Shown here one piece after another: positions 48,360-48,555 of a stretch of 64,000 nucleotides of DNA. The position numbers and the translations under genes were made by a program. Each line of letters opens with the position of its first letter. Within the stretch, counting starts at the first letter, position 1. The notes under the pieces were generated by a model. That model did no database searches. It saw only the letters and a program-made list of their open reading frames with translations, and had not been told where the DNA came from. The DNA is from Escherichia coli (GTDB taxonomy: Bacteria; Pseudomonadota; Gammaproteobacteria; Enterobacterales; Enterobacteriaceae). Where the stretch lies: assembly GCF_003334405.1 (NCBI RefSeq), contig NZ_QOWM01000007.1. One strand, 5' to 3'.

Positions 48360-48555
48360 CTGCCCCCTTAGTGCGGGGGCAGGATAGCAGAAAATTGGTG
48401 AGCAGTGCGGCCTTTTCCCCTCACCCCGGCCCTCTCCCCGGAGGGGCGAGGGAGAAAAAAAGAGTGCGGTGTCGTTTCAGAGTGAGGGAGTACATACAGC
48501 GCCGAACGGTCCCCTCTCCCTGAGGGAGAGGGTTAGGGTGAGGGGGCGCAAACGA
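48360..48555. repeat. cluster of GC-rich palindromic units between lldD and trmL (GCCCCC..GGGGGC; CCCTCTCCCCGGAGGGGCGAGGG; CCCTCTCCCTGAGGGAGAGGG; GGTGAGGGGG)
   Basis: Several imperfect hairpins built on a CCCTCTCC/GGAGAGGG core read directly; the same motif recurs at 55170-55380; resembles BIME/REP-type extragenic repeats but I cannot assign a named family. Confidence 0.5.

Follow-up and report, generated by a model that had tools for sequence, protein, structure and literature searches.

The GC-rich hairpin repeats between lldD and trmL of Escherichia coli are BoxC repeats, also described as PIT, TMECO and HPGQ elements, and are already known and catalogued. BoxC is in turn physically associated with genes encoding YcjD-type DUF559 nucleases, a link which we hold with high confidence. 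The explanation which we favour as a whole combines the BoxC identity of the repeats, a passive role as relics at their present site and an origin in a nuclease cassette, and we consider it likely.

The window, i.e. the whole stretch of 64 kb that was analysed, matches E. coli K-12 MG1655 with 100% identity as its reverse complement, as established with a 236-bp query across the repeats and the MG1655 record. MG1655 positions (g) are obtained from window positions (w) by g = 3,829,573 - w. The same 236-bp stretch is found, 100% identical, in many other strains and sits between lldD and trmL. The features of the window are listed in Table 1.

Table 1. Genes, repeat units and hairpins at the lldD-trmL and mtlA-mtlD spacers, in window positions.
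Feature	Position	Strand	Sequence	Remark
lldD	48556..49746	-		
lldD-trmL spacer	48359-48555			197 bp in K-12
BoxC/TMECO unit, type A	48512..48545	+	CCCTCTCCC-TGA-GGGAGAGGG-TTA-GGGTGAGGGG	loop 2 = TTA
Spacer between inverted units	48453..48511	.		59 bp
BoxC/TMECO unit, type B	48417..48452	-	CCCTCGCCCC-TCC-GGGGAGAGGG-CCG-GGGGTGAGGGG	loop 2 = CCG; one stem mismatch
trmL-proximal hairpin, 23 nt	48360-48382		CTGCCCCC-TTAGTGC-GGGGGCAG	sequence given on + strand; directly upstream of trmL start codon
trmL	47885..48358	-		
mtlA	55379..57292	-		
Hairpin, far side of REP pair	55344..55372	.	CCCCACCTTCTCC-ATGT-GGAGAGGGTGGG	
Two classical REP units	55239-55272 and 55309-55337			inverted, forming BIME; between BoxC-like pieces
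Putative degenerate BoxC unit	55202..55233	-	CCCTCTCC-TCAC-GGAGAGGG-TTT-GGGTGAGGG	8-nt blocks; MG1655 about 3,774,340-3,774,371
Partial BoxC	55179..55196	+	GAGAGGG-CTG-GGGTGAGG	blocks 2 and 3 only
mtlD	end at 55149			

The lldD-trmL spacer contains two inverted units of the layout CCCTCNCCC-loop-GGGAGAGGG-NNN-GGGTGAGGG. Holder et al. (2015) defined the TMECO motif as 5'-CCCTCNCCC N3-6 GGGNGAGGG N3 GGGNGAGGG-3' and equated it with the BoxC repeat of the 1990s and with the PIT (potential intrastrand triplex) element of Maher's group (PMC4666352). Both units match this consensus, CCCTCNCCC-N3-6-GGGNGAGGG-N3-GGGNGAGGG, exactly. MG1655 holds 23 TMECO copies including five inverted A+B pairs (PMC4666352 Table 1), and closely spaced inverted pairs always join one type A with one type B (PMC4666352). 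The lldD-trmL pair, with one unit of each type on opposite strands, follows this pairing rule and is one of the five: the type A unit, which begins 11 bp past the lldD stop codon, is TMECO no. 17 (MG1655 3,781,061-3,781,028), and the type B unit, inverted with respect to it, is no. 18 (3,781,121-3,781,156). In the table of Kaplan et al. (2016), which uses the HPGQ nomenclature with HPG1 and HPG2, they appear between lldD and trmL as HPGQ 43 and HPGQ 44, respectively (PMC5100583). The pair thus shares with the catalogued repeats the consensus, the three-block layout, the TTA and CCG loop types, the inverted A+B pairing and the intergenic site. A sequence-only reading of the window had left the repeats unclassified, in no named family. 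This was wrong, as both copies are listed by coordinate in the two tables; its view of them as a repeat family in its own right is borne out, BoxC having a consensus and a distribution of its own.

Within K-12 the arrangement of this pair is peculiar. According to the published TMECO table it is the sole one among the five K-12 pairs whose third blocks face outwards, and it has the longest spacer (59 bp vs 16-27 bp). A stray block-like fragment, GAGTGAGGGAG, lies at 48480-48490 inside this spacer, which is also the most variable part between strains in the allele alignment. Each BoxC unit consists of three blocks, of which the C-rich block is predicted to pair with the first G-rich block as a hairpin in single-stranded DNA; for the type A unit the predicted fold of blocks 1 and 2 reaches -9.3 kcal/mol (z = -2.8). 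When block 3 is aligned antiparallel to block 2 by eye, the triads are G·G, A·A and T·A. The earlier description of imperfect hairpins needs one minor correction. In the lldD-trmL spacer, CCCCTCACC (at 48417) and GGTGAGGGG (at 48545) do not pair locally: each is the outer, third block of one of the two inverted units (34-36 nt), at a distance of about 110 bp. A local hairpin of this kind exists only in the mtl spacer, between GGGTGAGG and CCCTCACC.

A chance origin of the motifs was ruled out with shuffled sequences. The hairpin pattern CCCTCTCC-N(2-8)-GGAGAGGG was found twice in the window (48512-48532 and 55214-55233) vs 0.00 expected in 100 shuffles. With up to two mismatches allowed, the two-block core GGGNGAGGGNNNGGGNGAGGG was found three times, at 48418-48438 (-), 48524-48544 (+) and 55202-55222 (-), again vs 0.00 expected. 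CCCTCTCC itself occurs six times vs 0.81 expected, all within the lldD-trmL and mtl spacers.

A further hairpin of the lldD-trmL spacer, the 23-nt structure next to trmL, encloses on the transcribed strand a Shine-Dalgarno-like AAGGGGG and is identical in all six spacer alleles compared, including those devoid of BoxC. It may serve a conserved control of trmL translation or mark a processing site.

The mtlA-mtlD spacer carries more decayed material. Judged by its sequence, the unit at 55202-55233 is a degenerate BoxC member which fits the consensus only with mismatches. It deviates in one position from the two-block core, is predicted to fold as a hairpin of -8.4 kcal/mol and abuts the first REP of the mtlA-mtlD BIME. 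With its 8-nt blocks it fails the strict consensus of the published tables and is listed neither among the TMECO nor among the HPGQ elements (PMC4666352, PMC5100583). The partial copy at 55179-55196 is inverted with respect to this unit and produces the local GGGTGAGG/CCCTCACC hairpin; together, 55178-55234 fold into two adjacent hairpins (-17.4 kcal/mol, z = -3.8). On the far side of the REP pair, the hairpin at 55344-55372 (DNA fold -10.7 kcal/mol, z = -3.2) includes GGAGAGGG but lacks the arrangement in three blocks; it may be a relative of BoxC, fused or decayed, and its membership is uncertain. The REP consensus CTTATCMGGCCTAC is present exactly at 55259-55272 (+) and 55309-55322 (-). The mtl spacer is polymorphic as well, at least 80% of the query being covered in 4,493 of 5,426 E. 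coli genomes.

TMECO sites are correlated with more sequence change nearby than is seen in control spacers (PMC4666352), and this published hypervariability is reproduced at lldD-trmL. A 601-bp query across the spacer was covered to at least 80% in only 3,531 of 5,421 E. coli genomes, and alignment of six fetched alleles revealed five length classes. The 197-bp allele is the K-12 form. In the 185-bp allele the middle G block is gone by a 12-bp loss between CCGGGG direct repeats, a slippage signature. In the 153-bp allele (strain 1409, L003:255-408), present in full in 804 E. coli genomes, a perfect palindrome of 35 bp, CTGTCTCTTGATCAG-ATCTC-CTGATCAAGAGACAG, has taken the place of the central part of the BoxC pair. 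Elsewhere the arm sequence also matches inside annotated IS4-family transposase features, and we take the arms to match the IS50 inside end. The palindrome has the appearance of a footprint left by an IS4-family element, or of a minimal derivative of one. One block is left in the 72-bp allele, and the 47-bp allele is without BoxC. The latter differs also in its flanks from the K-12 allele, whose units are themselves inverted repeats, and no target-site duplication or clean empty site was visible.

Three other explanations of the repeats have to be weighed. We give practically no credence to the idea that the motif is a normal part of REP/BIME elements, even though BoxC-like pieces directly flank the two REPs of the mtlA-mtlD spacer and the Rfam alignment of the REP-derived naRNA4 (a partial, sub-threshold match of 38 bits at 55213-55269) partly absorbed a BoxC hairpin. 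REP (PU) and BoxC sequences are alike in being short, GC-rich, imperfect palindromes which are intergenic, multi-copy and often arranged as inverted pairs. However, their consensus sequences are unrelated, REP has no third block and is roughly 10-20 times more abundant. For Petrillo et al. (2008), BoxC counts among the known E. coli families and is separate from PU-BIME and ERIC, with 22-32 copies vs about 300-485 of PU-BIME. Their separate distribution already refutes this idea within the window. The scan for CTTATCMGGCCTAC yielded no match in 48359-48555; matches were located at 47866, 55259 and 55309, plus one with two mismatches at 3086-3099. Conversely, the REP-like sites 47841-47879 and 52466-52506 have no adjoining BoxC motif. 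Membership in the REP/BIME consensus had been named by the sequence-only reading as the refuting outcome for a separate family; the test was run and left the separate family standing, and the BIME-type element proposed alongside is not supported. Its exclusion of CRISPR was correct, there being only two units, inverted rather than direct, with a single 59-bp spacer. For an RNA-chaperone target we obtained no support. An E-value-mode Rfam scan of 47800-56000 gave nothing at or above the gathering score; the naRNA4 hits all lay outside the lldD-trmL spacer and correspond to REPs, and the sole hit within it was whalefall-1 with 16.5 bits vs a gathering score of 37. In the same region, between yibL and lldP, a sub-threshold match to the enterobacterial sRNA STnc380 spans the full model length at 52348-52456 (+) (36.4 bits vs a gathering score of 60, E = 2.7e-4) and adjoins the REP-like site 52466-52506.

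The two remaining alternatives assign the pair a function in gene expression. Kaplan et al. (2016) catalogued these same two copies and proposed for such units a switch between G-quadruplex, hairpin and duplex controlling transcription of neighbouring genes; circular dichroism (CD) of oligonucleotides revealed ion-dependent structural transitions, and roles in initiation and termination were discussed (PMC5100583). For the lldD-trmL pair we regard such a switch as very unlikely. The second G-rich block can act in vitro as the third strand of a purine-motif intrastrand triplex in the G-rich single strand, and CD and NMR of consensus oligonucleotides support a stable triplex, NMR favouring it over a quadruplex; in vivo, however, dimethyl sulphate (DMS) footprinting gave no protected guanines and hence no stable triplex footprint (PMC4666352). 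TMECO stops polymerase in vitro, and the genes beside TMECO share neither function nor a distance pattern (PMC4666352). Natural alleles wholly without units are moreover common (about 1,890 of 5,421 genomes). The other alternative sees the pair as a REP-like 3' stem-loop which would shield the lldD mRNA from 3' exonucleases or attenuate read-through into trmL. Read on the transcribed strand, the spacer begins right behind the lldD stop codon. When its entire length is folded as RNA, the units are predicted to base-pair with one another as a long stem (-87.9 kcal/mol, z = -3.8); the mtl spacer, which folds as a row of hairpins, is more structured still (z = -9.2). REP elements are documented mRNA stabilisers and attenuators (background in Petrillo et al. 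2008). Against both proposals, PIT elements displayed no promoter or terminator activity and left RNA polymerase unaffected in the work cited in PMC4666352, as far as that citation reports it. Our scan of 47800-48800 found no promoter or terminator consensus on the transcribed strand; the only terminator-like site was on the other strand inside trmL, and no GC hairpin with U-tract was present at the units. In addition, the units are found in either orientation and on either side of genes (PMC4666352), and strains with the 47-bp spacer manage without the pair. A protective or attenuating stem-loop is thus an unlikely role for it.

We return to the reading of BoxC as a dispersed, passive repeat, with which the census has to be compared. 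Every one of the 5,426 complete E. coli genomes carries the 36-nt BoxC consensus, at 92,765 places in total and at 1-32 per genome (median 19). Of these places 365 (about 0.4%) are plasmid-borne; among the matches listed, none lies on an annotated feature. Phages are almost free of BoxC (7 of 50,697 phage records match). A scan with the Holder consensus in one genome per species revealed at least three organisms with exact matches among the matches listed, namely the betaproteobacterium Mitsuaria chitosanitabida, with many dozens of copies, a Methylomirabilota metagenome-assembled genome (MAG) and a Contendobacter MAG. TMECO is absent from Salmonella, as published. Pair orientations in Mitsuaria, counted over the loci L015-L126, were 60 outward (C-rich then G-rich on either strand) vs 1 inward with spacers of 11-272 bp; in K-12, four pairs are inward and one, that at lldD-trmL, is outward. 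The pairs of the Methylomirabilota and Contendobacter MAGs show the arrangement opposite to that of Mitsuaria, with near-fixed spacers of 11 or 29-31 bp.

The association with DUF559 became apparent in Mitsuaria. At one locus (L051) a 139-aa DUF559 protein (Pfam E = 2e-39) is encoded between two BoxC copies: a G-orientation BoxC stops 24 bp short of the start codon, and at the other end an inverted BoxC makes up the final codons of the gene. The fetched Mitsuaria DNA contains three DUF559 genes (L050, L051, L053), each of them bracketed in this manner; the layout is a BoxC with the G-rich strand, then the nuclease gene, then an inverted BoxC that overlaps its stop codon. Ten DNA contexts were compared, comprising the three Mitsuaria paralogues, an Enterobacter genome and five metagenomic lineages (L128 and L131-L136 together) as well as E. 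coli ycjD (L127:2541-3328 in K-12). [quoted passage not shown] In the Enterobacter genome and the five metagenomic lineages a full inverted BoxC spans the stop codon in every case, and most of them also have the G-orientation copy no more than about 40 bp ahead of the inferred start. Searching for an empty counterpart of the Enterobacter cassette through its neighbour HemW gave only filled sites.

In E. coli K-12, ycjD is the only DUF559 gene of this type. Its product ends in NRRSPSP, and the gene ends in CCCTCTCCC-TGA plus a hairpin. On its 3' side follow a duplicated fragment of its own 3' end and then TMECO no. 9. This is the fabI (envM) locus, at which BoxC was first described. The gene occupies the sapF-fabI site, where other phylogroups carry eefRABCD, and is present in 3,378 of 5,426 E. 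coli genomes; about 38% are without ycjD yet carry BoxC. O157:H7, for instance, has 15 BoxC copies though no ycjD, and UTI89 has 4 BoxC copies, both counts being anecdotal. None of the best 120 YcjD homologues is a Salmonella protein.

The C-termini of the nucleases extend the association to the protein family. Translated, blocks 3 and 2 of a type B unit give the ending PSPxPSP or SPSP, which is carried by 74 of 112 near-full-length close homologues (Enterobacter, Klebsiella, Kluyvera, Lelliottia and others). When the C-termini of 121 stand-alone representatives of 50%-identity clusters were back-translated to the BoxC consensus, 23 fitted without any mismatch in 24 positions and 46 with at most two, vs none of 121 shuffled tails at up to two mismatches. 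All three reading frames are used (31, 14 and 12 cases), so that it is the DNA motif that is conserved and not the peptide. In 39 of 59 cases the BoxC junction is situated 18-23 residues past the RFWN motif. Conservation is 90% or higher at the putative catalytic residues D, E.D and QH, which characterise nucleases of the Vsr-like fold, and the nearest solved structure is 3HRL, an uncharacterised 'endonuclease-like protein'. YcjD matches no known defence-system model in PADLOC. The DUF559 family is very large (24,683 clusters at 50% identity, E <= 0.001). A DUF559 protein was reported to cause DNA damage in Caulobacter cells lacking a methyltransferase, and the same fold group includes a published homing endonuclease.

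Partial duplicates of DUF559 3' ends, each with its own BoxC, are found just downstream or upstream of the intact gene in K-12 (L127:2780-2900, - strand), Mitsuaria (L050:6390-6488) and a metagenomic contig (L136:1-135). It looks as if insertion or conversion events had happened repeatedly at the same spot. A motif GGTCGGACCTG lies beside BoxC in a metagenomic bacterium, in the spacers of two inverted pairs (L131:536-576 and 1084-1120), and recurs downstream of TMECO no. 9 in E. coli K-12 (L127 about 2640-2700, - strand). Such a recurrence is a hint of a conserved element longer than the triplex motif of 36 nt; in its first description, BoxC measured 56 bp.

The arrangement is reminiscent of known mobile repeats. 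REP doublets are mobilised by the REP-associated tyrosine transposase in REPIN-RAYT systems. By analogy, BoxC with DUF559 would likewise consist of a few copies of a small nuclease or transposase gene flanked by a repeat that is scattered genome-wide, often as inverted doublets, with a patchy distribution among lineages. In contrast, the DUF559 protein is a Vsr-fold PD-(D/E)XK endonuclease and not a Y1 transposase, BoxC overlaps the stop codon, the spacers of the Mitsuaria pairs are not fixed, and mobilisation of BoxC is only hypothetical. With MITEs such as ERIC/IRU and the Neisseria Correia elements BoxC shares small size, lack of coding capacity, hairpin formation, intergenic location and variable presence between strains; the BoxC unit is much shorter, and no transposase is known for it.

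That the nuclease acts on BoxC, the units being cassette ends or recognition structures and the gene-less copies orphans or targets, we propose only tentatively. In such a scheme the DUF559 nuclease would act in trans and account for how BoxC spread, why it occurs patchily among species and why the sequence around it is unstable. A tblastn search of the whole window with six DUF559 proteins gave no credible hits and hence neither a DUF559 gene nor a remnant, from which we conclude that the BoxC copies of the window are orphans. Taken together with the presence of BoxC in E. coli without ycjD, the link to the nuclease is here historical or in trans at best.

In the explanation which we favour, the BoxC family would have originated as terminal repeats or recognition sites of a small YcjD-type DUF559 endonuclease cassette, and the copies of the window would be gene-less orphans of this system. 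At lldD-trmL the pair would have no dedicated regulatory job and would be a repeat that forms structures, whether selfish or a relic; its main effect would probably be that the spacer readily undergoes slippage, is deleted or is replaced. In the region of the lldD-trmL transcript its RNA is predicted to form a very stable stem. The mtlA-mtlD spacer would hold a decayed BoxC copy and a fragment beside an unrelated REP pair. The lack of a dedicated function is an argument from absence. Retention of BoxC in all E. coli genomes at a fairly steady number could reflect selection, counter to its reading as a relic.

For the lldD-trmL spacer itself the finding re-detects a catalogued repeat; its use is a correct negative, in that the repeat is neither a REP nor a CRISPR nor an RNA gene. 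For the family it reaches further. For some thirty years BoxC has counted as an orphan repeat to which neither an origin nor a partner protein or function could be assigned. Of the two main modern studies, Holder et al. reported TMECO as always intergenic with no mobility-related genes nearby (PMC4666352), and Kaplan et al. likewise reported no mobility genes and made no mention of the nature of the ycjD gene (PMC5100583). In the literature searched we found no link between DUF559 and BoxC. The earlier suggestion that the repeats may be targets of a DNA-binding protein now receives a concrete protein candidate by the association with DUF559. A BoxC bracket around the gene of a Vsr-fold endonuclease, conserved between distant bacteria, offers a possible cause of the instability near BoxC motifs, and the bracket would give stand-alone YcjD-type DUF559 genes their first functional context.
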